Assembly (NCBI GenBank): GCA_030647555.1
Contig: JAUSJG010000007.1
Coordinates: 106,181-170,180, forward strand
DNA length: 64,000 nucleotides
From: a bacterium
Lineage (GTDB): Bacteria; Patescibacteriota; Andersenbacteria; UBA10190; CAIZMI01
Direction of reading: 5' to 3'
In this document: piece after piece, positions 2,720 to 64,000 of the stretch
Numbering within the stretch: position 1 is the first letter of the stretch
How the letters are laid out: each line of letters begins with the position of its first letter
Program-made: the position numbers and the translations under genes
The notes under the pieces: generated by a model
What the model saw: only the letters and a program-made list of their open reading frames with translations
Told to the model about the DNA's origin: nothing
Database searches by the model: none

Positions 2720-2903
2720 ATTTATTGAGCACATACTATATTTTGGCATTTTTATATATATTATATTTTGTCGAGCACGAAATCATCCCCCGTCGCCCTG
2801 ATGAGCTATGGGGGATTATTGTTTTTTACGAAAAACAATAAAAAAACCGTACGACTACCTGGTCGTACGGCTACTAAAGAGCTTGAAACTGGTAACGTCG
2901 CCG

Positions 2904-3908
2904 CTACTTGATCTGGCGGATTTCGCGGGGGCTTTTGCGCACCCCTTGAAGTTGCTTGTGGCAGCGCTGTTTCAGCATCGCCACCTGCTCCGGCCCGCCG
3001 AACACTTTTGTGATTGCTCGCGCATCAAGACTCTCGAGCGCACTGATGTACTGTGTCGCGCCAGTGAAATCTTTCCATCCAACAGACTCATCGACGAGGC
3101 CTTTCAGTCTTATCGCTTCGACGATAAACAGCTCGATCAGCCGCTCGTCCAAAACGGCCAGCTCGGGATCATCCGGAATGAAAGTGTAACCATATCCGAC
3201 CGATTTCCGGACCATTTTTCTTTTGATGGGCTCAATACCCTCAAGCAGAAGTTTGGCCCCAGCAAGATCACCAGCTTCCATTCGTACCCGACACACCGCG
3301 AGAGACTCCTCTCGAAACCGTCGTGCATCCTCCTTAGCACGAACCTCGGCTTCCACGATTTCCCTCTCGACGGCTTCTTTGGCTGTTCTCTCGGCTTGAG
3401 CCTTGCTGTTAACCGCAGAAATGACCTGCACACGAAGTTCGTCATGTTTCCGTGTCAGTTCCGCGAGCCGCTCTTTCAAAGCCACAAGTTCATCATTTCG
3501 CGGCTTAACAAACGGAATGAGATACTTTTTCGTCTGAAGCAATCCTAAGCCTCGACTTGTCCAAAGCAACCTTTCTCCCGCTCGATCGAACGCATTTCGT
3601 GCGCCCGGATTGGCAATAACACTGGCATGTCCATCTTCAGCCTCGGCCAGGTATTTACCGCAATCGACGAAAATGAGATCGGCCCATTCCTTGTTCCGCT
3701 TATCAAGTTCGCGAAACAACCTGCTTCGCGCAGCCCCATATTGCCTCCTTAGGTCTTGGCTGCTCGTTTCAAGGATCGCATCCGTAAGCCAACTTGTGCA
3801 AGAGGCCAGTTCCGCTGGTTTAGAGGACTGGCTCGCCAACAATTGGGCGGCGTGACCGAGAAGCCACGTATTGTCGCGATCACGATCAATTTCAAACCCA
3901 TCATACAT
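2904..3908 (-). CDS. Hypothetical protein with long central coiled-coil/charged segment; GC-richer than surroundings
   Basis: 334-aa ORF; AGGAG Shine-Dalgarno 8 nt upstream of ATG; consensus-like promoter TTGACA-17-TACGAT on minus strand (rev-comp of ~3940-3975); no family recognised. Confidence 0.55.
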   Translation of the reverse strand: MYDGFEIDRDRDNTWLLGHAAQLLASQSSKPAELASCTSWLTDAILETSSQDLRRQYGAARSRLFRELDKRNKEWADLIFVDCGKYLAEAEDGHASVIANPGARNAFDRAGERLLWTSRGLGLLQTKKYLIPFVKPRNDELVALKERLAELTRKHDELRVQVISAVNSKAQAERTAKEAVEREIVEAEVRAKEDARRFREESLAVCRVRMEAGDLAGAKLLLEGIEPIKRKMVRKSVGYGYTFIPDDPELAVLDERLIELFIVEAIRLKGLVDESVGWKDFTGATQYISALESLDARAITKVFGGPEQVAMLKQRCHKQLQGVRKSPREIRQIK

Positions 3909-4018
3909 TGGATTTTCTCCTGTTATATTTATTCAGTTTTCCCACAGAACAACGGAAAATCGTACCCCCAAATTGGAGATTTGTCAATAGTACCGTTTGC
4001 GAGAATAATATGTAGGTA

Positions 4019-5287
4019 ATGGCAGAAATAAACACAGAAACGGAAACAACAATTCAATCGCCTGTCATTCCTACTGAAGCAGGAATCAGCAACGACCAGA
4101 AAACGGATTCCTGCTTCGGCAGGAATGACGATGTTGCCAACGAACTCTCTATCCTCCAAGCCCTCGCAGCCTTCCGACCAAATATCAACGCGTCAAAATT
4201 ACACGCCCTCATTAAATACGCTGGCAGTATTGAACAGGCTTGGGCAGTACCCGACGAAGCGTTGGAACAATACGGCTGGACTGCGGAACAACGACAATTA
4301 TTTAATGCTCACCGAAAAAATTATCAACCGGAAAAAGCACTGGAGCGCCTTTACCATTTAGGCATAGAGTTTATTCCCGACACTTCCCCTAAATTTCCAA
4401 AATCACTTCTTGATATATTCGATCCACCGCTTGGTCTTTATGTTCGCGGTAAACTTCACCAAAACAGTTTGAACATTGCTTTTGTGGGCAGTCGCAAAGC
4501 CACACCCTACGGAAAAACCGTTACAAACATGTTGGTGCGTCCGCTTGCCGCCAAAGGCGTCGTCATTATTTCCGGGTTAGCTTATGGCATCGATGCCGAA
4601 GCCCACCAGGCCACACTACAAAGCAATGGCACCACTTGGGCCGTCATGGGCAACGGTTGCGACGAAATGACTCTTTATCCACGCGCCCACCGCCAGTTAG
4701 CAAAAGACATTATTAATAATGATGGCGCGGTAATCAGTGAATATCCACCCGGCACACCGGGGCAACCCTATTTTTTCCCACAACGTAACCGCATTGTCTC
4801 CGGTCTTTCTCGCGCGATTGTTGTCGTGGAAGCAGGGCTACAAAGCGGTGCCCTAATCACCGCCCGCTTGGGCCTTGAACAAAATCGTGAAGTTTTCGCC
4901 GTTCCCGGCCCCATTACTTCGGAAATGTCCCAAGGAACCAACGAACTGATCCGCGATGGTGCGACACCTGTGAGTAGTGCCGAACAAATTATGGACGCGT
5001 TGGAACTGTTCTCTTTATTTGGCGGAATATCTCCCTCAAAAGCCGCGAGACAAATCTCCCACAAAGACATCGATGCCGTTTCAAATATTGTCGCAAGAAC
5101 CACTTCCAATCAACCGCAAAATGACCAAGAAAAAGTCTTAACTGTCCTTTCTACAAATCCGCTCGCTATTGACGAGATCGTAAAAGCCAGTACACTCCCG
5201 TCTCAAGTGGTAGGTTCTATTTTAACTCTTTTGGAAATTGAAGGTTTAGTCAAAGATATCGGCAATAAAAACTACACCAGAATTTGA
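4019..5287 (+). CDS. dprA: DNA processing protein DprA/Smf
   Basis: Rossmann-like DprA core (VVIISGLAYGIDAEAHQATL, FAVPGPI), SAM-like N-region; exact start uncertain (imperfect inverted repeat 4070-4130 lies inside the 5' end of the ORF). Confidence 0.8.
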   Translation: MAEINTETETTIQSPVIPTEAGISNDQKTDSCFGRNDDVANELSILQALAAFRPNINASKLHALIKYAGSIEQAWAVPDEALEQYGWTAEQRQLFNAHRKNYQPEKALERLYHLGIEFIPDTSPKFPKSLLDIFDPPLGLYVRGKLHQNSLNIAFVGSRKATPYGKTVTNMLVRPLAAKGVVIISGLAYGIDAEAHQATLQSNGTTWAVMGNGCDEMTLYPRAHRQLAKDIINNDGAVISEYPPGTPGQPYFFPQRNRIVSGLSRAIVVVEAGLQSGALITARLGLEQNREVFAVPGPITSEMSQGTNELIRDGATPVSSAEQIMDALELFSLFGGISPSKAARQISHKDIDAVSNIVARTTSNQPQNDQEKVLTVLSTNPLAIDEIVKASTLPSQVVGSILTLLEIEGLVKDIGNKNYTRI

Positions 5288-52997: not shown

Positions 52998-54035
52998 CTA
53001 CGCGCTTCTCATGATCACCTCCGGTGCTTCACTTACCAGGCAACGAATTCCGGCGTTCATCCACACTGGATAGTAACGAATCGGGACGGCAGTAGTGAAG
53101 ACATTTTCGCGACCAACAATGTCCGCGACCAACGCCTCCACATCGGGATCACCGGAAGTCATGAGCACACGCCCACCATCCACCTGCAATAGATTAAGGG
53201 CGTATGGAACACATAATGTCTGGGCTGGCACATGCACTGTGATGTCGAGCGGTTTACAGACCCGCTGAAGCAACGCAACTGTTTCTCCCGGTTCACGTGC
53301 TGTCCAGTTCTGTCCCTGAAGCCACTCCGTGGAAAAGTTCAAACGATCCATTACGAAATGGAGCGACTTGTCTTGAGCCGAGAGCAGTGTGCCAATCCGA
53401 TCCAGGTGGTCGTTGTATGAAACCTTTTCCGTTACACCACCCCAGCCATAACGAAGGGCCACAAGAAAAGGTATTTCTCCAAACTGCATACCCATCTCGC
53501 GCAAAATCTGCACATCGTCTTCCCAAAGCGACCGTGACGGTCCAACATCTTCGGTTCGCAAACGATCACCGATAAGTGCTGTTCTTCCGGAGTAGAGCAT
53601 GCGTCCGCCCTCACCCCACACAGACTTCGCAATCCGCCACCCATCCTTAGATGAGACGACGCTCTCAATCCCACAAGGATTGAGGAGCAGCGTTTTCAAA
53701 TCCTGATGGACAGTACAGAAGTCTCGCGGATACAGGACGGTTGAAGGGGCGTGACCCGGAAACGCCGCCAGCCTACAACCCAACGCTTGATTGAGAGTAA
53801 ACACATAGGCTTGGTCGACCTTGGTTATGTCGCGACACACGATTCGAAAATCGACACTCATCTGTTTCAGAGCATAAGCGATCGCCGCGTGCTCCCTTCT
53901 CAGATTTTCTGCCACGATAGCCATCGTCCTGGACTCATCCAAGACATCTTGGCACAACCGCGCTTGGCCAGCGGGGGCGAAGAAATCGTTTCGACGCGCG
54001 ATATTAAACTTCGGTTCTCCCAGTAGGTACATCAT
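52998..54035 (-). CDS. Hypothetical protein, possibly pentein/amidinotransferase-like fold
   Basis: GGAGG SD, start likely at second ATG pair; C-terminal GIRCL could be a catalytic-Cys motif; assignment speculative. Confidence 0.45.
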   Translation of the reverse strand: MMYLLGEPKFNIARRNDFFAPAGQARLCQDVLDESRTMAIVAENLRREHAAIAYALKQMSVDFRIVCRDITKVDQAYVFTLNQALGCRLAAFPGHAPSTVLYPRDFCTVHQDLKTLLLNPCGIESVVSSKDGWRIAKSVWGEGGRMLYSGRTALIGDRLRTEDVGPSRSLWEDDVQILREMGMQFGEIPFLVALRYGWGGVTEKVSYNDHLDRIGTLLSAQDKSLHFVMDRLNFSTEWLQGQNWTAREPGETVALLQRVCKPLDITVHVPAQTLCVPYALNLLQVDGGRVLMTSGDPDVEALVADIVGRENVFTTAVPIRYYPVWMNAGIRCLVSEAPEVIMRSA

Positions 54036-54113
54036 TCGACCCATCCTCCAAAAAGAGATTAAATTTTCAAAAAAGGACGACCCTCTACTATACTTATATT
54101 TTCACGATTGTCA

Positions 54114-54147
54114 ACGCATCGTAATGTAACACGCATCGTAATGTAAC
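54114..54147 (+). repeat. Tandem direct repeat 2 x ACGCATCGTAATGTAAC in divergent promoter region
   Basis: Read directly; partial inverted copy GCATTACATTAG at 54306-54318. Confidence 0.7.
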
Positions 54148-54412
54148 CACTCACTGGTCGAGATTTATCTGGGACCGTCCCTGCACGCCAGGGTCGGTCA
54201 CAGATAAACAAAATTACTTACAAATCAAACTAATTACTCACACTTCCTCAACCTGTGAGCGGTTACATTCATAATGCCTCAGTGGATTGGGACACCAACT
54301 ATTGAAGCATTACATTAGTATGGACCCCCGACTTCTCGGGGGTGGTGGATTTTTCTGATACTTACTGTAATATCGACTTTCAGGCGGGTGAGGAGCTACT
54401 TACGCGTTATAT

Positions 54413-54441
54413 TTGACAAATTCAAATAAATCTTATAATAT
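54413..54441 (+). promoter_or_regulatory. Consensus sigma70-type promoter TTGACA-17nt-TAATAT
   Basis: Read directly; lies upstream of ATG 54503, so the upstream TTG of the longest ORF is the -35 box. Confidence 0.6.
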
Positions 54442-54502
54442 ACTACGTTCAGTTACGGAACGATTTTTTGACAATTTTCCTCCTTCTTCAGGGAACCCTG
54501 CC

Positions 54503-56317
54503 ATGTCCATGTCAATGGGATGTTACGTCGGTGCGTATCTCACTCAAGCGGTCGTTCAGGTTGCATCACTATCCCCAATCCAATGGAGCCTGCTCAGTGC
54601 GTACGCCAAATACGGCTACGGCCCACCTCCTTACGTCGAGCCGACGTATGAGGATGAAACTTTCCACCCCCGGCTCAAGCTCAAACTCCAACAGATCGTC
54701 GGCTTTGAGGAGATGGAACACTCCCTCCGCATGCAGTATGTCGACGCGGCCAACGAAGTATTTCGTTTCGCCTACACACGCGGACGAGATGAGGACGATG
54801 AACAGAAAGGATTCTACAAAATCCCCCTCCTGCGCAATCGCCGGATCATGGATGATCCAGAAGGCATCGACCGCATCAAGATTCGCATTAGTCGCGCGGA
54901 ATACGAACGTGCCAACGCGATCCTGGAAGCCGTCGGCGAACTGGAAAGGATCGCACGCGCCATTCCATACTACGAGCTGTACTGCACGGTCAAGAAAAAC
55001 CTGCGGCGTCAGTTCAAAGTTGGGCTCGATGATGTGGTCTTAGTATCGATTGACCGCGGTGGTCGACTCCCCTGCATCATCCTTCAACGAGCATTGAACA
55101 TGCCCTGCATGTTCTCGCTCAAAGTAGACCAGGGCGGACGAGGCCTGGACGAAGACCGTCTCCTCGAATTCGTTTCGGACGGCACTCTGCGAGACAAGCA
55201 TGTCCTCTTTGTGGACTCGACCGTGGATTCGGGACGTCAGATCCGAGTGTTAGAGCGTTACTTCGATGATTCCAACTGGCGAGCCAGACTGGGACACCGA
55301 AGTTGGTCCATCGTCGGATCAAACGACTACGCCGAAAATCTCGGTCACCACTTGAACGTCAATTGGGGTGTCGATCCCGACCGAACGTTTGAGGACAACC
55401 CCCAACTAATGGGGATCGACTACGCTCCGGGAAGTCACACGAAGGTCGTTGATTTTCCGTCGCAAGCCGCGACCGACATTCGCAGATGTTTGTTGGCAGT
55501 GCCGGATGGCTACATCTACACTACCTCAGACATCGACGAACAACTCGCCACCCAACGCGAAAAATGGCAGCAACGCCAAAAGGAGCGTCGGGCGGAACAC
55601 AGACGGCAAGTGGCGACAGAAAAAGCGACTCATCGAAGCGAAACAGCGCAACATCGACAGCGAGTGAAGGCTGCCGACAAGGCCGATCGTCTCGATCGTG
55701 AATTGCGACGAATCACCTCTTCCAAGCGTTGGCAAGCACTCAAGCGTGCAAGCCAAAGTCTGCCGGAAGAGACATTGCCTCAAGCGGTTCAAAACGGGCA
55801 AGCCCACGAAATGCACAACGTGCTAATCGTGGGCGCGCGCCAGCAGAACCTGCCACAGGCAACGGTAGATTTCGTCGCCGACAACCTTGGCCCTCACTGC
55901 TCACTGTTTGCCGGAACGCCCAAAGGCAACCCCGGCGCCGTCCTCAAGGCGGTGCTGGCAAGCCAGAAGGTTCCGCAACCGGAGGTGCGTCTGTATCAAA
56001 CAGAGCACATGCGGGGACAAGTCGATCCAGCATTCGGCAACTCGCCGGTCGTGTTCGTCGGTCCAGACAAGCACGACGTGCGCTACAGGATGATCGATGA
56101 CTCGCACGCAGTCCTCGCTCTGGGTGGAGAAGATGGGACGCTGGAAGAAGTGCTCCAAGCACTTCTCTCGGATAAGCCCACCTTCATTATCTCGGGTTAC
56201 GGACCAGTCGCCGCCTACGTCGCCGGTAGCAAGCAGCTTCGAAAGAAGAAGAGCTTGCACATCTGTTCCAGTGTGGCCGAGGCGGTACAGCTGATCCTAG
56301 ACGCGTCCAAAGCCTAG
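54503..56317 (+). CDS. Multidomain protein: unknown N-domain + type-I phosphoribosyltransferase (PRTase) domain + highly charged helical linker + LOG/SLOG (Lonely-Guy-like) domain
   Basis: PRPP motif HVLFVDSTVDSGRQI and upstream VVLVSIDRGGRLPCIIL; linker QREKWQQRQKERRAEHRRQ...; LOG motif AVLALGGEDGTLEEVLQAL...KPTFIISGYGP. Confidence 0.6.
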   Translation: MSMSMGCYVGAYLTQAVVQVASLSPIQWSLLSAYAKYGYGPPPYVEPTYEDETFHPRLKLKLQQIVGFEEMEHSLRMQYVDAANEVFRFAYTRGRDEDDEQKGFYKIPLLRNRRIMDDPEGIDRIKIRISRAEYERANAILEAVGELERIARAIPYYELYCTVKKNLRRQFKVGLDDVVLVSIDRGGRLPCIILQRALNMPCMFSLKVDQGGRGLDEDRLLEFVSDGTLRDKHVLFVDSTVDSGRQIRVLERYFDDSNWRARLGHRSWSIVGSNDYAENLGHHLNVNWGVDPDRTFEDNPQLMGIDYAPGSHTKVVDFPSQAATDIRRCLLAVPDGYIYTTSDIDEQLATQREKWQQRQKERRAEHRRQVATEKATHRSETAQHRQRVKAADKADRLDRELRRITSSKRWQALKRASQSLPEETLPQAVQNGQAHEMHNVLIVGARQQNLPQATVDFVADNLGPHCSLFAGTPKGNPGAVLKAVLASQKVPQPEVRLYQTEHMRGQVDPAFGNSPVVFVGPDKHDVRYRMIDDSHAVLALGGEDGTLEEVLQALLSDKPTFIISGYGPVAAYVAGSKQLRKKKSLHICSSVAEAVQLILDASKA

Positions 56318-58195: not shown

Positions 58196-58417
58196 CTAAC
58201 TAAAGTAGTTGGAAATTTTAAATCCCGCCCAAATACCGACAAAAGCACCAACACCGCTTAGCAAAATCGGCGTAAAAGAAAACATATCCGCGCCCCAAAG
58301 CGAAGGAATCAACCCGCCAATCGTGGATCCCACAAACATTCCACCCCAAATCAAAATTTTTGAATTCACCTTGTTATTATACCCTATCGGCACAAGAAAA
58401 AACCGACACAATTTCAT
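58196..58417 (-). CDS. GlsB/YeaQ/YmgE-family small membrane protein
   Basis: Gly-rich two-helix pattern GGMFVGSTIGGLIPSLWG...GVGAFVGIWAGF. Confidence 0.55.
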   Translation of the reverse strand: MKLCRFFLVPIGYNNKVNSKILIWGGMFVGSTIGGLIPSLWGADMFSFTPILLSGVGAFVGIWAGFKISNYFS

Positions 58418-58854
58418 GTCGGCTCAACACCAGCCTGCGGAACCTCGACTTCATTTTCCAATTTCGCATCTTCAGTGACCACTCGAATGTCGATAATTGC
58501 CAGGGGGTCGGAATCACGGAAGAATTGCTGAATCGGGCCCGCGTAACCGAGAGTAACAGCAACTAAAGCACCAACCGGAAAATCCTTAAGCCGTTCGTCA
58601 TCCACTCCGACTGTGAGGATCGTTGCACCCCCCTGAAGATGACAGTTGTCTAAGGCCGACAGCTTCGATTGCGCACTTTGGTTAAAGACCTTAACATGCT
58701 CGGGATTAAGGCGGATTTCAATCATCCTCATTCGATTCTTAAATATCCACCAACTGGTCTCACGAACGGTGTGCGCCGTCACTGTCCCGCGCAGGACATA
58801 CAAACAACGCTGACCACCGCGAGGGTTGCAAGCTCGAAACATTGTGCCTGGCAT
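58414..58854 (-). CDS. Hypothetical protein (146 aa), GC-rich
   Basis: AAGGAG SD 7 nt upstream. Confidence 0.5.
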   Translation of the reverse strand: MPGTMFRACNPRGGQRCLYVLRGTVTAHTVRETSWWIFKNRMRMIEIRLNPEHVKVFNQSAQSKLSALDNCHLQGGATILTVGVDDERLKDFPVGALVAVTLGYAGPIQQFFRDSDPLAIIDIRVVTEDAKLENEVEVPQAGVEPT

Positions 58855-59072
58855 GTTTCACTCCTTATTTCCAGAAAAAAATGAACATCAATCAGAACAG
58901 GGTATTGTTGAGCAAACATGAAATATTGTCAATGTTTTGTATACCACAAAATACCGTTGGCTCGTGATTAATTGTTGCCATATCTATTTTATTATTGTAC
59001 AAACTAATTGTTCATTTCTATTTACGGACGAAGCCTTACTACACAATCACCATTTTTCGCTAGGAACCAAAA

Positions 59073-59562: not shown

Positions 59563-60831
59563 ATGCATAAAAATATCTTTCGATCAAAAGTAAGTTTATT
59601 TGTCTTATTAGTCGTCGGTGCGATATTGGTATCGCAAGTATCAAAGAGCGTTAACGCACAAGGATCAGCATCCTCCAAAATTCCGGGACAATACATCGTT
59701 GTTTTAAGAGATAACACTCAAAATCCGCAAGACGTTGCGAATGAAATGGCTAAATCAAATAGCCTCACTGTTGGTAATGTTTACACTAGAGCGTTGAAAG
59801 GTTTTTCGGCCACTATACCGGCCGTACGGCTGGAAAACATTAAAAATGATTCTCGAGTGCAGTTTGTTTCAGAAGACCGAGAAGTTTCCGCTTTTGCTAA
59901 ACCAACACCGGTCGCAATCCCCCAAACTACGCCCACGGGTATCAGTCGTATCCAGGCGCCACTGACTGCCAACAAAGGTGCCGGTATCGGCATCGCCGTT
60001 TTGGATACAGGTATTGATCTAACGCATCCCGATCTTAAAGCAAATATTGTTGCCAATACAAGTTGCGTTCGAAGCAAACAAACTGGCAATGACGATAACG
60101 GACACGGGTCGCATGTGGCGGGCACTATCGCCGCGCTCGATAACGGAATCGGTGCAATTGGAGTAGCCCCGCAAGCGAAACTGGCGGCAGTTAAAGTGCT
60201 TAACTCGTCCGGTTCAGGAACTTGGTCTTCCGTTATTTGTGGAATCGATTGGGTTACAGCGAATGCCACGCAATACAATATAAAAGTAGCCAACATGAGT
60301 TTGGGGGGCGCTGGTACAAGCGATAATAATTGCGGAAATTCCAATAACGATGCTTTACATAAAGCGATCTGTAACTCTACTGCTGTGGGTGTAACATATG
60401 TTGTGGCCGCGGGTAATGATGGTGCGAATGCCAGTAATTCTGTACCAGCCTCTTATGATGATAGTGTTATCACTGTTTCCGCTTTAGCCGACTCTGATGG
60501 AAAATCAGGCGGACTTGGTTCAGCAACAAGCTATGGTGCCGATGATACATTTGCCAGCTTTAGTAATTTTGGCGACGTGGTTGATCTTGGCGCTCCCGGT
60601 GTCAATATCTTTTCCACTTGGAAAAGTGGCGGTTACAACACTATTAACGGCACAAGTATGGCTACACCGCATGTAGCGGGCGCGGCTGCGTTATACATAA
60701 ATTCTCATCCTGGATCAGTATGGTCGCAAGTACGCGATGGTTTGAAGGCGGTTGGCGAAAGCGTTGGCGCCGGGCACACCGATCCATCGGGATTACATCT
60801 TGAACAAGTAGTACAAGTAAACGCCCTCTAA
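59563..60831 (+). CDS. Secreted subtilisin-like serine protease (S8) with N-terminal I9 propeptide
   Basis: Signal peptide; catalytic triad contexts AVLDTGID, HGSHVAGTIAA, GTSMATPHVAGAAAL. Confidence 0.9.
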   Translation: MHKNIFRSKVSLFVLLVVGAILVSQVSKSVNAQGSASSKIPGQYIVVLRDNTQNPQDVANEMAKSNSLTVGNVYTRALKGFSATIPAVRLENIKNDSRVQFVSEDREVSAFAKPTPVAIPQTTPTGISRIQAPLTANKGAGIGIAVLDTGIDLTHPDLKANIVANTSCVRSKQTGNDDNGHGSHVAGTIAALDNGIGAIGVAPQAKLAAVKVLNSSGSGTWSSVICGIDWVTANATQYNIKVANMSLGGAGTSDNNCGNSNNDALHKAICNSTAVGVTYVVAAGNDGANASNSVPASYDDSVITVSALADSDGKSGGLGSATSYGADDTFASFSNFGDVVDLGAPGVNIFSTWKSGGYNTINGTSMATPHVAGAAALYINSHPGSVWSQVRDGLKAVGESVGAGHTDPSGLHLEQVVQVNAL

Positions 60832-60847
60832 TACAGGATTCTAGATA

Positions 60848-60907
60848 GGAAACGGACGTGTTTTGGGGGATAATTAACGCGAAAAAGACGGGTGAGCTGG
60901 TTTTGGG
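60848..60907 (+). repeat. Direct repeat DR1 (~80% identical to 63914-63975)
   Basis: GGAAACGGACGTGTTTTGGGGGATAATTAACGCGAAAAAGACGGGTGAGCTGGTTTTGGG. Confidence 0.6.
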
Positions 60908-60925
60908 ATAAAGATTTGTAACAAA

Positions 60926-60957
60926 GAAAAAACCCACGACCGTTTGTGGCGTGGGTT
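60926..60957 (-). terminator. Rho-independent terminator for gene 60981-61745
   Basis: AAAAAA + AACCCACG-loop-CGTGGGTT on plus strand. Confidence 0.65.
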
Positions 60958-60980
60958 CGGTAGCGTGATGATGGTTGCGA

Positions 60981-61745
60981 TCAGTCCCAACAACGAGTGG
61001 CAATCCTTGCCATCTCATTCTTGTCGACGTCGAGACGCTTGATCAAACAAAATAGCGCGTGTAAATGCAGTTGCCACTTTCTTGTTTTGGTCTCTGCGGG
61101 GTTGCTGTGACTGCCCCACACTTCGTCCAGTTGCGGCGGATAATGAAAACCAGAAAACTTTTGCACCTCCGCGATAGACCGACCGCCCAACTCTTGCTCA
61201 ATCTGACGCACGCGCTGATCCAGAACTGCCCGATAAAGCGAGCCACCAATCTCCGTCATGATCTCGAACTCAAAGTCGTGTGCCTCGAATTCGTGCAAAT
61301 CATAATCGGCGAAGGGTGCGTTTTGTTCCGCATGCTTGAGAGCGTGAAACCCTTCGTGTGCAGTAATCATGCCACTTAGAAAAGTGGAACAATTGTGCAA
61401 ATCCCGCATGACAAGAAAACGGTTCGGATGAAAGTAAGACGCCAGTCCCTTGTCGTCTCTTAGTCCCAACGAACTAATGCAATTATCGGGAAGAACACTT
61501 AAATCGTCTGGATCAAACACGTAAACCCAAACGATCTTATTCGTAGTGTGATCACCACGAAATTTTTTTCGAAACGGTTGTTCGCCAGAGAATTTTCCGT
61601 CTAGCTTCGGAACAATGAGACGACAGTGTGCCTGCAGAAAATCGACCACCGCCCTCAACTGCCGATTATCGATTCGCGCATCGAGCGCCTCTACACTCTG
61701 CAGGTGCTTCTGGGCGATTTCAAAGCGCTTTTGATTGGTAAACAC
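60981..61745 (-). CDS. Hypothetical HExxH zinc-metallopeptidase-like protein
   Basis: HEGFHALKH motif; no further family recognised. Confidence 0.5.
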   Translation of the reverse strand: MFTNQKRFEIAQKHLQSVEALDARIDNRQLRAVVDFLQAHCRLIVPKLDGKFSGEQPFRKKFRGDHTTNKIVWVYVFDPDDLSVLPDNCISSLGLRDDKGLASYFHPNRFLVMRDLHNCSTFLSGMITAHEGFHALKHAEQNAPFADYDLHEFEAHDFEFEIMTEIGGSLYRAVLDQRVRQIEQELGGRSIAEVQKFSGFHYPPQLDEVWGSHSNPAETKTRKWQLHLHALFCLIKRLDVDKNEMARIATRCWD

Positions 61746-61943
61746 GGCAACCCCTTTCTAAAAAGGACTATCTGTGATTGTACATTCAAAAAACACGAAC
61801 CAAGGATACTACCATATATTTTAGTTGTTGTCAAACACCATAAATTGACAACTTCTACTTTCGATGTTAAATATTTTAAACTGGATGGATAATCTAACGT
61901 CGTTTGCAATCAAGCCTGTTTTTTCAAAATCAACGCAAGGAGA

Positions 61944-62795
61944 ATGAATATGGATTTCAGACGCAGAGAACAAAAAGCTTTGTTAAGAAAATTAATCGAA
62001 CAAGGCGTGTCGATTGAAAGCATCGAAATTCCCGGCAGGCCACCAAGAGCCATCAGAAAACAAGCACTAAGAATGAAGCTAATTCTGCCACAACGGAATC
62101 CTCCATTAACAGAGGCACAAAAAGAACAGCTAACTCAACTTCGCGCGGAAGGAGTTCACCCTGAAGCAATTGCGAGCTGTGAGTTGCTGGGCCATTCAAA
62201 CCGCTCAACAAATTCCATACGAAAACACTGTGGTAAATTGGGCCTAGCGCACAAGAATCGTTCGCGCGCCGCAAAAAAAAGAAAGATCTGGCAACCCGGT
62301 GAAAAAAAATGCTTTGACAACTACCTTATTCGACATTCCGCGACCCTTTCTTCCGACGAACTTGCGAAGGAATTCGACGTAACAAGAATGACCGTCGATA
62401 ACCGACAGAAACAACTTGGCGTGAAACCGACACTTACAGAAACCTTGGCATTGCCAGCCATAAAAAAGAAAATTGAAGCAATTTGTCGGCAACGAAGTAA
62501 AATGATGCTCAAGGCGTTTGAGACACACATAGTAAAAAAAGAAAAGGAACTCACAAGATTGGCGCAAAAAATGCACGAAGAAAAACGAGAGGAGTCACTA
62601 ATAGTGAAGTTTTGTCCAAAATGTAAAAGGTGGTGGCCAAAACAGCAAAAGTTTTTCTTTCATTCCACCTATAAAGTAGCGCAGAGCAACGGAACAGGCA
62701 CCAGTTGGCATTTCGTCGCGCCATGCAAACTTTGCGTGGCAAAAGAACGCCACCAAAAAAACGTGAGGAAGCACAAAGAAAAATACGGCGTCTAG
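61944..62795 (+). CDS. Hypothetical basic protein with C-terminal Cys4 cluster
   Basis: CPKCKRWW...CKLC; Lys/Arg-rich. Confidence 0.4.
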   Translation: MNMDFRRREQKALLRKLIEQGVSIESIEIPGRPPRAIRKQALRMKLILPQRNPPLTEAQKEQLTQLRAEGVHPEAIASCELLGHSNRSTNSIRKHCGKLGLAHKNRSRAAKKRKIWQPGEKKCFDNYLIRHSATLSSDELAKEFDVTRMTVDNRQKQLGVKPTLTETLALPAIKKKIEAICRQRSKMMLKAFETHIVKKEKELTRLAQKMHEEKREESLIVKFCPKCKRWWPKQQKFFFHSTYKVAQSNGTGTSWHFVAPCKLCVAKERHQKNVRKHKEKYGV

Positions 62796-62880
62796 CGTTT
62801 TTCAAGAAACAGGAGGCAAGCGGTTCACCACGACCGCTTTTTTTATAAACCATTACCGTTATTTTAAGTGACTGATATTT

Positions 62881-63258
62881 TCAGACGACTACTTCTCGTC
62901 CATCTTTCTTAACTGCGTTTGCAACTGTACCAAAACGATCTTCCAAATCTTCAAGACGCATTGGAAATGGACTAATCGCAGGATTAATCGGCAAGGCGGC
63001 CATTCGCAAAGTAACCATTTCATCGATTCGGTCTTTGCCAAATTGTTTACTTACCACCGCCACATCGATATCGCTCCACTGATTTTGTTTTCCCCTTGCC
63101 CAAGAACCGTACAAAAACATTTTTTGTACTGGAATATTTTGTTGACGCAAAGACCGCGCATATTGCTCAAGTTGTTTTTTTATAATTTCGTCTATCATAA
63201 TATTTGTCACATCTTTTCTCGTAAACAACTTACTTTGTGGCCGAAAACTTTCGTTCAT
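62881..63258 (-). CDS. Minimal nucleotidyltransferase (MNT, Pol-beta superfamily)
   Basis: GSWARGKQNQWSDIDVAVV = GS-x9-DxD motif. Confidence 0.75.
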   Translation of the reverse strand: MNESFRPQSKLFTRKDVTNIMIDEIIKKQLEQYARSLRQQNIPVQKMFLYGSWARGKQNQWSDIDVAVVSKQFGKDRIDEMVTLRMAALPINPAISPFPMRLEDLEDRFGTVANAVKKDGREVVV

Positions 63259-63835
63259 ACTCCTTCAATATTTCCCGCTGATCACGATTTGATTCCTCGA
63301 CCGCCTGTCTTATTTTTTCACGCGAAACAATATTATTAAAATCGGTACCCCGATAGTACGCCAATTCATACGGTATTTCTTTTCTTAATTCCGTACCGAT
63401 ATATGGCGCTTCGGCGTGAGACAATTCTTCCAGCTGTTTACCGTTGAGATGACCGTATTTGATAACAATCCGATCAAGCATTTTCTTTTCTTCATCGTCA
63501 AAAACGGAGGAATCCGGTTCGACGAGACATTTATATACTTCGGTTGGATTGTATCCTTCTCGTTCTTCGATTTTTTCGACACCGAGCATTTTTTTCTTTA
63601 TCATTTCGTTGGTTATTTCTTCCAATGCCGAAGGCATCGGCCCCATGGGGAGAGCATGATAAACATCGCCCGTGATTGATTTCTGGGTTTTTTCATACAA
63701 ATCAAAATCCGCAAAATAAAACAATTTTGCTAATTTTTTCTTACCTCGTACCTCGCCTTTTAGCTTTCGGCATAAGTACAAAACGGCATTCTGATATTTT
63801 TTGCGGTGTATAGTCATTTCATTCACATAATACAA
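63230..63835 (-). CDS. Panacea-domain (DUF4065, SocA-like antitoxin) protein
   Basis: KKKLAKLFYFADFDLY matches Panacea core (KLQKLLYFAD); overlaps downstream MNT gene by 29 nt. Confidence 0.6.
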   Translation of the reverse strand: MYYVNEMTIHRKKYQNAVLYLCRKLKGEVRGKKKLAKLFYFADFDLYEKTQKSITGDVYHALPMGPMPSALEEITNEMIKKKMLGVEKIEEREGYNPTEVYKCLVEPDSSVFDDEEKKMLDRIVIKYGHLNGKQLEELSHAEAPYIGTELRKEIPYELAYYRGTDFNNIVSREKIRQAVEESNRDQREILKEYERKFSATK

Positions 63836-63913
63836 TAAATAACTATGGAAAACAAGCTAAAATGTTACATGTTCAACGGAAAAAACGTCTATATCATGGA
63901 ATCGGATTGTTAA

Positions 63914-63975
63914 GGAAACGGGGGCGTGTTTTGGAAGATATTTAATGGGAAAAAGACGGGTGGGCTGGTTTTTGG
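63914..63975 (+). repeat. Direct repeat DR2
   Basis: GGAAACGGGGGCGTGTTTTGGAAGATATTTAATGGGAAAAAGACGGGTGGGCTGGTTTTTGG. Confidence 0.6.
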
Positions 63976-64000
63976 CTAACTGATTTGGAACCAGGGATTT

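Follow-up and report, generated by a model that had tools for sequence, protein, structure and literature searches.

A conserved non-coding element of about 85 nt at the borders of accessory gene units in uncultured bacteria of the candidate phyla radiation

Bacteria of the candidate phyla radiation (CPR) have tiny genomes, and their means of acquiring and exchanging accessory and defence genes are poorly understood. Here we describe a short repeat, R, which is present in two copies (R1 and R2) in a stretch of 64,000 nt, hereafter the window, taken from an Andersenbacteria genome (Patescibacteriota; GenBank assembly GCA_030647555.1, contig JAUSJG010000007.1, positions 106,181 to 170,180). R spans ~85 nt of non-coding DNA, is conserved and has no palindromic structure, and it keeps one fixed orientation in a variable region of the genomes of a few related CPR bacteria. 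Further copies occur in a second genome, so that R is a small family of such elements located at the borders of swappable accessory units in at least two uncultured CPR genomes. We tentatively favour the view that R is a conserved junction element acting at the DNA level, likely a substrate of recombination, at the borders of accessory cassettes that assort independently. A recurrent junction sequence of this kind might serve as a searchable marker of gene exchange in CPR, and R would then be a candidate site of recombination different from the attC of integrons, from dif and from tRNA att sites. Accessory cassettes bounded by repeats are themselves a known kind; should R be only a local relic or the site of a regulator, the observation would amount to a modest annotation note.

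R1 and R2 bracket a 3-kb block that carries a gene for a protein with an HExxH motif, a gene for a helix-turn-helix (HTH) protein with a four-cysteine (Cys4) zinc ribbon, and a gene pair coding for a Panacea-domain protein and a minimal nucleotidyltransferase (MNT). The block is flanked by a conserved S8 protease gene and by a gene for a secreted HAF-repeat protein. Aligned without gaps, the two copies form a direct repeat of 58 nt (60854-60911 and 63922-63979) on the same strand, 84% identical and spaced by 3068 nt; with two small indels allowed, the similarity widens to about 60842-60927 and 63907-63997, that is, to 83-84% identity over ~85 nt in the same orientation. The nine differences between R1 and R2 involve all base types. 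The original prediction had placed imperfect direct repeats, ~80% identical, at 60848-60907 and 63914-63975, which was right within a few bases, and the four genes that it had named between them (HExxH, basic Cys4, MNT and Panacea) are there as described, as judged from Pfam matches and invariant motifs. When searched with blastn-short, each copy found its partner as the sole match (E=2e-8) in 64.6 kb, made up of the window and of the 593 nt past its end that are covered by Logan contig SRR13727527_20766 (loci L001/L002). A 24-nt pattern of the R core matched two sites, with none expected from 100 shuffles.

A local-alignment screen of loci revealed R in L010, L011 and L012, after which a profile was built from three copies. 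Loci L010 to L013 are contigs from four JGI metagenomes and represent another genome, whose HExxH protein is 74% identical to that of the window, while L015 (Logan contig SRR22388067_1495717) comes from a related strain. The copies of R are as follows.

60842..60927, plus strand: R1, ~85 nt (nhmmer profile match 60844-60927, E 5.5e-24)
63907..63997, plus strand: R2 (nhmmer profile match 63908-63997, E 1.4e-22)
L010, ~816-904, strand opposite the HExxH gene: R3 (profile E 7e-23; also in L011 and L012)
L010, 2681-2741, strand opposite the HExxH gene: R4, degenerate (profile E 6e-4; also in L011 to L013)
L015: orthologue of R1 (profile E 2.3e-23; 97% identical to R1)

Pairwise identity is 83% between R1 and R2, 83% between R1 and R3, and 80% between R2 and R3, with R4 showing ~70% identity to the other copies. 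Four blocks are invariant in the aligned copies (AGGAAAC, CGTGTTTTGG, AAAAAGACGGGTG and TGGTTTT), and R2 and R3 have ~14 extra nt in common on the promoter side. Since the two copies of the window are as diverged from each other as copies from different genomes, they are not a fresh duplication produced by the arrival of the 3-kb block; they are as old as the split of the two genomes. Between the window and L010, the HExxH coding sequence is 79.5% identical and its promoter and 5' untranslated region 74% identical. By these identities, the conservation of R equals or exceeds that of the HExxH coding gene, which argues for constraint and for an old family.

Beyond these copies, R is rare. The profile finds no further one in the window, including 61 kb of housekeeping context, none in loci L014, L016 and L017, and none in 21 kb of the more distant relative L019; an R-like sequence 3' of the S8 gene in L017 is not significant. 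Pattern scans of viral contigs for R gave no match. The exact pattern GAAAAAGACGGGTGNGCTGG returned from genome and metagenome contigs only chance matches without flanking similarity, and it was too strict, as it missed R3 (GGTGAATTGG). The search for additional copies that the original prediction had advised thus yielded nothing else in the 64.6 kb and R3 and R4 in another genome. The original prediction would have been refuted by a dispersed repeat of high copy number placed without regard to accessory genes; in the DNA available, R is instead low-copy and was seen only at the borders of accessory cassettes.

The arrangement around R is comparable in the two genomes. Read in the orientation of the HExxH gene, the window runs from the HAF gene through R2, the Panacea-MNT pair, the Cys4 gene and the HExxH gene with its terminator to R1 and the S8 gene. 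L010, read likewise, has a gene with its terminator, R3, the genes of an HD protein and of a 174-aa protein followed by a terminator, R4, the HExxH gene with its terminator, and finally an insertion sequence (IS) of the rve type. The cargo bracketed by R in L010, namely the HD protein and the 174-aa protein, is unlike that of the window, and every R copy lies on the strand opposite the HExxH gene. R1, R3 and R4 adjoin the T-run of the preceding terminator, and R2, R3 and R4 are found roughly 10-90 nt upstream of the promoter or start codon of the next unit. R1 starts 11 nt 3' of the stop codon of the S8 gene and abuts with its right end the A-run/T-run of the HExxH gene terminator, so its setting is between convergent genes. 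R2 is situated upstream of two divergent promoters, with the minus-strand Panacea-MNT operon on one side and the promoter of the HAF-repeat gene on the other. Between R1 and R2, the 3-kb block consists of three separate transcription units, each with its own promoter and terminator, the Cys4 unit being inverted relative to the others.

The best-traced of these units is that of the HExxH gene, with the following features.

60981..61745, minus strand: HExxH protein gene, 254 aa (motif AHEGFHxxKHAEQ invariant)
60927..60956, minus strand: intrinsic terminator of the HExxH gene (hairpin CCCACGCC..GGTCGTGGG followed by T6; conserved in L010, L014 and L015)
61806..61834, minus strand: sigma-70-like promoter of the HExxH gene (TTGACA-17-TAGTAT)

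A conserved promoter, a ~70-nt 5' leader, the coding sequence and the terminator travel here as one unit, which we found in at least three genomic contexts (window 60927-61843, minus strand; L010 ~2815-3745; L014 ~490-1400). Across four genomes, nucleotide homology extends from the -35 box to the T-run of the terminator and stops at the edge of R; no conserved fold was seen in the 5' leader. In two of the contexts other than the window, the unit occurs without the Cys4, MNT and Panacea genes: in L010-L013 it comes after the HD and 174-aa proteins and before the rve-type IS, and in L014 it is accompanied by a lipoprotein gene and other small genes. L015 shows the same order as the window, S8-R1-terminator-HExxH. 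In L010, a gene for an rve-family (IS481/IS3-like) transposase occupies positions 3866-4921, directly 3' of the HExxH terminator, where the window has R1. A truncated R beside this IS, after the HExxH terminator, was considered and dropped as unsupported, its alignment score being at shuffle level.

In the original prediction, the repeats were proposed to be attL/attR remnants or the borders of a repeat-mediated cassette. The cassette wording agrees with what we see, R being at the borders of accessory units with varied cargo; the notion of a single integrated element for the most part does not, given the lack of a recombinase, the mosaic cargo and the age of the copies. Spelled out, this notion would make R1 and R2 the attL and attR, or their decayed remnants, of one ~3-kb element, a small plasmid or an integrative element, inserted at an R-like site in the spacer between the S8 and HAF genes by site-specific or Campbell-type recombination, one R copy having come from the element. 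Direct repeats in the same orientation do flank accessory-type cargo that includes a toxin-antitoxin (TA)-like module, and diverged attP and attB sites could account for the 83% identity. The related strain also lends it something: L015 is 94-100% (~98%) identical to the window (60504-62008) through the S8 gene, R1 and the terminator, and ~80% identical from ~61003 on, until the alignment fails ~12 codons into the Cys4 gene. From this drop it follows that the cargo has a history different from that of the S8 and R1 backbone, and the break at ~61003 indicates a recombination breakpoint or an allele replacement within the cargo.

Other observations speak against a single integrated element. No integrase, transposase or Rep is found among the proteins of the block, the Cys4 protein being DNA-binding only, and within 49 kb neither a tRNA nor a tmRNA is present. 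Beyond the end of the window, where the original prediction had advised looking for an integrase or a tRNA, there is none in the 593 nt of SRR13727527_20766. The base composition of the block is native: a foreign origin by composition was rejected, as GC content, GC content at third codon positions, skew and tetranucleotide distance all fall within the background of the window. The cargo comprises three autonomous units, of which the HExxH unit exists alone elsewhere, and in another genome R flanks other cargo and has an internal copy between units. The mismatches between R1 and R2 are scattered over the whole 85 nt, and there is no identical core with unrelated arms. A search for an empty site by way of S8 homologues found none: L016 (P0007) and L017 (P0008) present other contexts without R, and L019 (P0014, 21 kb) is likewise without R. 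In L016, the S8 gene is 82% identical to that of the window, with different genes upstream, a PF02594/DUF167-family gene downstream and no R; homology continues exactly 17 nt past the S8 stop (L016 1743-1759 against window 60832-60848, TACAGGATTCTAGATAG) and is lost at 60848, the left edge of R1. Overall, we regard attL/attR sites of one element as quite improbable, the least likely of the readings weighed here.

Several classes of known elements were compared with R and set aside. As an RNA element, R has no Rfam match (at the gathering threshold or at E<=1), and its fold z-scores range from -1.0 to +1.0, neither strand yielding a fold. RNAalifold gives weak energies of -5.9 and -1.9 kcal/mol and shows no compensatory pairs inside R, three minus-strand ones being accounted for by the hairpin of the adjacent terminator. 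An RNA is also disfavoured because the transcriptional contexts of R1 and R2 are inconsistent. As an attC hairpin, R was rejected on its single-stranded DNA (ssDNA) folds, which reach -0.9 to -7.7 kcal/mol (z -1.3 to +0.6, both strands). R has no long inverted repeat, terminal inverted repeat or palindrome, and its sole inverted repeat, near the right end, has arms of 6-7 bp separated by 15-18 nt and is missing from R1. A dif-like site would be 28 nt long, with two partly palindromic 11-nt arms on either side of a 6-nt spacer; no such dyad was seen in R, no formal dif model having been run. A template/variable pair of a diversity-generating retroelement is contradicted by mismatches in all bases, by the non-coding nature of both copies and by the absence of a reverse transcriptase. 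Finally, a coding remnant or mini-ORF (open reading frame) was discarded: the mismatches lack codon periodicity, and the 12-codon ORF of R2 has no start codon in R1.

The likeness of the R loci to integron arrays, and to clusters of attC sites lacking integrases (CALINs), deserves a separate comment. In both, sites of 60-140 nt that share one orientation lie between and around accessory units, TA modules among these, the cargo varies between genomes while the site recurs, and, as the CALIN case illustrates, no adjacent recombinase is needed. The differences are nonetheless substantial. R has no dyad symmetry and no ssDNA hairpin, and inspection showed no R''/R' core motifs. Integron cassettes are mostly promoterless single ORFs that point one way, downstream of intI/attI/Pc, whereas the units of the window have their own promoters and terminators, the Cys4 unit is inverted and one border has no site; and R is conserved in sequence (80-83%), whereas attC sites are conserved in structure. 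No integron integrase IntI was seen in the region examined, which is not the whole window, as the latter was not scanned for integrases. Xer modules (IMEX and pdif modules) bear some resemblance too, for in them direct repeats flank accessory cargo, often with TA genes, and no recombinase of their own is carried. R departs from these modules, as it does from attL/attR pairs: it lacks an identical core flanked by unrelated arms, a dif-like 11-6-11 layout and a tRNA target, and its cargo does not move as one unit. Since R fails the structural tests for attC and dif, and since the units are transcriptionally autonomous, R belongs to neither family. It is tempting to suppose that R is the recombination site of an undescribed integron-like system of CPR/Patescibacteria, in which a recombinase with its gene elsewhere would insert, excise and shuffle self-contained units at a conserved, non-palindromic, double-stranded site of ~85 nt; its mechanism would differ from that of attC/IntI and from that of Xer/dif. 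This proposal strikes us as improbable, though not to the degree of the attL/attR reading.

A different possibility is that R is a low-copy selfish or relic repeat without function, resembling repetitive extragenic palindromic (REP) elements or miniature inverted-repeat transposable elements (MITEs), or a remnant of an old segmental duplication, lying where insertions are tolerated. Like REP/BIME, ERIC, RUP/BOX and Correia elements, R is short, non-coding and intergenic, and it is found beside terminators, as REP/BIME and RUP/BOX elements often are; the degenerate state of R4 would also suit a relic. Those families, however, are palindromic or bear terminal inverted repeats and are high-copy, whereas R is non-palindromic, low-copy, uniformly oriented and, so far, restricted to the borders of accessory cassettes. 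A REP or MITE was rejected on these grounds, as the 64.6 kb hold just the two copies, the 61 kb of housekeeping DNA among them and the 21 kb of L019 are free of R, and no terminal inverted repeat or palindromic structure is present. The same orientation of all copies also speaks against a functionless sequence, for which a conservation between genomes at least as high as that of coding sequence would not be expected. We hold such a relic to be unlikely, while ranking it above an undescribed integron-like system.

Among the alternatives, the one that we find least hard to accept, and still judge unlikely, is that R is a cis-regulatory or architectural site (an operator, an insulator or a nucleoid-protein array) bound by a host or cassette protein and with no role in mobility. 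Its block-wise conservation with invariant segments, its position ~10-90 nt upstream of the next promoter or start codon in the case of R2, R3 and R4, and the presence of a multi-HTH protein encoded inside the block would all suit a protein-binding site. So would a half-repeat, GTTTTGG..ATAA, which recurs within R at a spacing of ~39 nt. The main problem is posed by R1, which lies between convergent genes and has no promoter to control. In addition, the distance between R and the promoter is variable, L010 has R yet no Cys4 homologue in the 5 kb seen, and the GTTTTGG..ATAA sub-motif is weakly enriched outside R, with matches mostly intragenic, as a consequence of which it was rejected as a regulon site.

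We return to the junction element that we favour. What can be stated plainly is that an R family exists in two genomes with a shared orientation, a position at unit borders, high conservation and differing cargo, and that it has no RNA or ssDNA structure. On this basis, R would act at the DNA level, as a substrate for the gain, loss or exchange of units. The agent might be a recombinase encoded elsewhere in the genome or, alternatively, homologous recombination between R copies or with incoming DNA that bears an R copy. In that case, R1 and R2 would be end sites, one on each side of a small cassette array, and not the attL and attR of one integration.

Several points weigh against this scenario. 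Recombination at R is something we infer, because only four R copies in two genomes are known (five with the L015 orthologue), one of them, R4, being degenerate. No recombinase is linked to R in the loci examined, and neither an empty site nor a circular junction was recovered. The border between the Cys4 and HExxH units, inside the block of the window, has no R, and the HExxH unit of L014 has none within 2.4 kb. In L015, the break at ~61003 falls inside the 3' end of the HExxH gene, ~75 nt from R1 and not at R1 itself. CPR genomes have short intergenic spacers, in which an element of any kind would to some extent be expected to abut terminators and promoters, and the anatomy of R also suits a role that is purely regulatory or selfish.

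The cargo of the window block is of interest in its own right, comprising an orphan HExxH family, a well-folded but uncharacterised multi-HTH/zinc-ribbon family, and a Panacea-MNT pairing that falls outside the partners described in those portions of the Panacea literature that are cited below. The HExxH family amounts to five clusters among 5.8 billion proteins. Its window member has no profile match in Pfam (even at E<=10), NCBIfam, PADLOC, PHROG or PDB, and its AlphaFold2 model is poor (predicted local distance difference test, pLDDT, of 48), too poor for a fold search.

The second unit of the block comprises a single gene.

61944..62795, plus strand: gene for a basic protein of 283 aa with HTH repeats, a coiled coil and a Cys4 zinc ribbon (own terminator at 62818-62846)

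Its family numbers 66 representative clusters, all of ~275-290 aa and uncharacterised, in which C224, C227, C261 and C264 (CxxC...CxxC) are invariant. Profile matches are confined to weak ones with HTH_23, HTH_7 and GcrA. The AlphaFold2 model (pLDDT 90.5) displays three tandem HTH-like modules, a coiled coil of ~40 residues and a C-terminal four-cysteine zinc ribbon; Foldseek against PDB gave only weak tandem-HTH matches (Mos1/SETMAR and Myb; E >= 0.09), none of them significant. The model contains no catalytic domain, from which it follows that the 3-kb block encodes no recognisable recombinase. The protein is predicted from its modelled fold to bind DNA and not to be a recombinase.

The third unit is a two-gene operon.

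63230..63817, minus strand: gene for a Panacea (SocA/DUF4065) protein, PF13274, 195 aa (201 aa from an alternative TTG start at 63835)
62881..63210, minus strand: MNT gene, 109 aa (125 aa from an alternative start at 63258), with an intact GS-x11-DID motif

The Panacea gene is upstream, and the MNT gene of the same strand starts 19 nt past its stop (with the longer MNT start, the two overlap by 29 nt). The Panacea protein matches PF13274 (E 3.3e-20, 73.5 bits against a cut-off of 25.7) and phrog_1281 (2e-14), and its scan of viral contigs gave no match. The MNT protein matches Pfam NTP_transf_2 (3e-9) and Polbeta (2e-8) as well as the PADLOC candidate defence family PDC-S09 (3e-12), and with MntA it scores 33.8, below the cut-off of 60. 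An MNT fold is normally that of the antitoxin in HEPN-MNT type VII systems. In the window, the MNT domain is present and its partner has a Panacea domain and no HEPN domain; as there is no HEPN partner, the pair is not a canonical type VII system. PanA-PanT are TA pairs with a Panacea-domain antitoxin (Kurata et al. 2022, PMC8832971; Ernits et al. 2023, PMC10440598), and the window pair has in common with them a Panacea gene directly upstream of a small co-oriented partner gene in a two-gene operon. It differs in that the partner is a minimal nucleotidyltransferase; no such partner of Panacea is mentioned in PMC8832971 (main text and parts of the supplement) or in PMC10440598 (main text). In two phage records, a small gene of another family, co-oriented and overlapping, likewise comes after the Panacea homologue, and on a Tenacibaculum plasmid the Panacea gene comes after an MqsR toxin gene. 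By analogy with the PanA-PanT architecture, the window pair looks like a TA-like operon.

Two genes flank the block.

59563..60831, plus strand: S8 subtilase gene, left flank (97-98% nucleotide identity in L015, along with R1)
window-equivalent 64125-64592 (L002 5191-5658), downstream of R2: gene for a HAF-family extracellular repeat protein with a signal peptide

The closest named homologues of the S8 protein belong to Daviesbacteria and Levybacteria. On SRR13727527_20766, R2 is followed by a sigma-70-like promoter and then by the HAF gene, which we think is unusual for a CPR genome. The best homologues of its product are at most 56% identical, metagenomic and annotated as HAF or PEP-CTERM, and were of no use for synteny; the homology search did not return the identical protein. 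An inverted repeat of 41 nt with 76% complementarity (58397-58437 and 58898-58938) lies a short way upstream of the S8 locus. It brackets 460 nt with most of a 146-aa ORF (58414-58854, minus strand) that has no family match, and one of its arms holds a terminator-like hairpin. Farther upstream, the segment at ~53000-56300 is an outlier in tetranucleotide composition and GC content (GC 0.52; distance 0.031 against a mean of 0.016). It sits between smpB and an FkbM methyltransferase gene on one side and an ABC transporter gene on the other, contains an ORF of 348 aa without a family match and one of 634 aa with a faint match to SLOG-cluster2, and may be a separate acquired segment.

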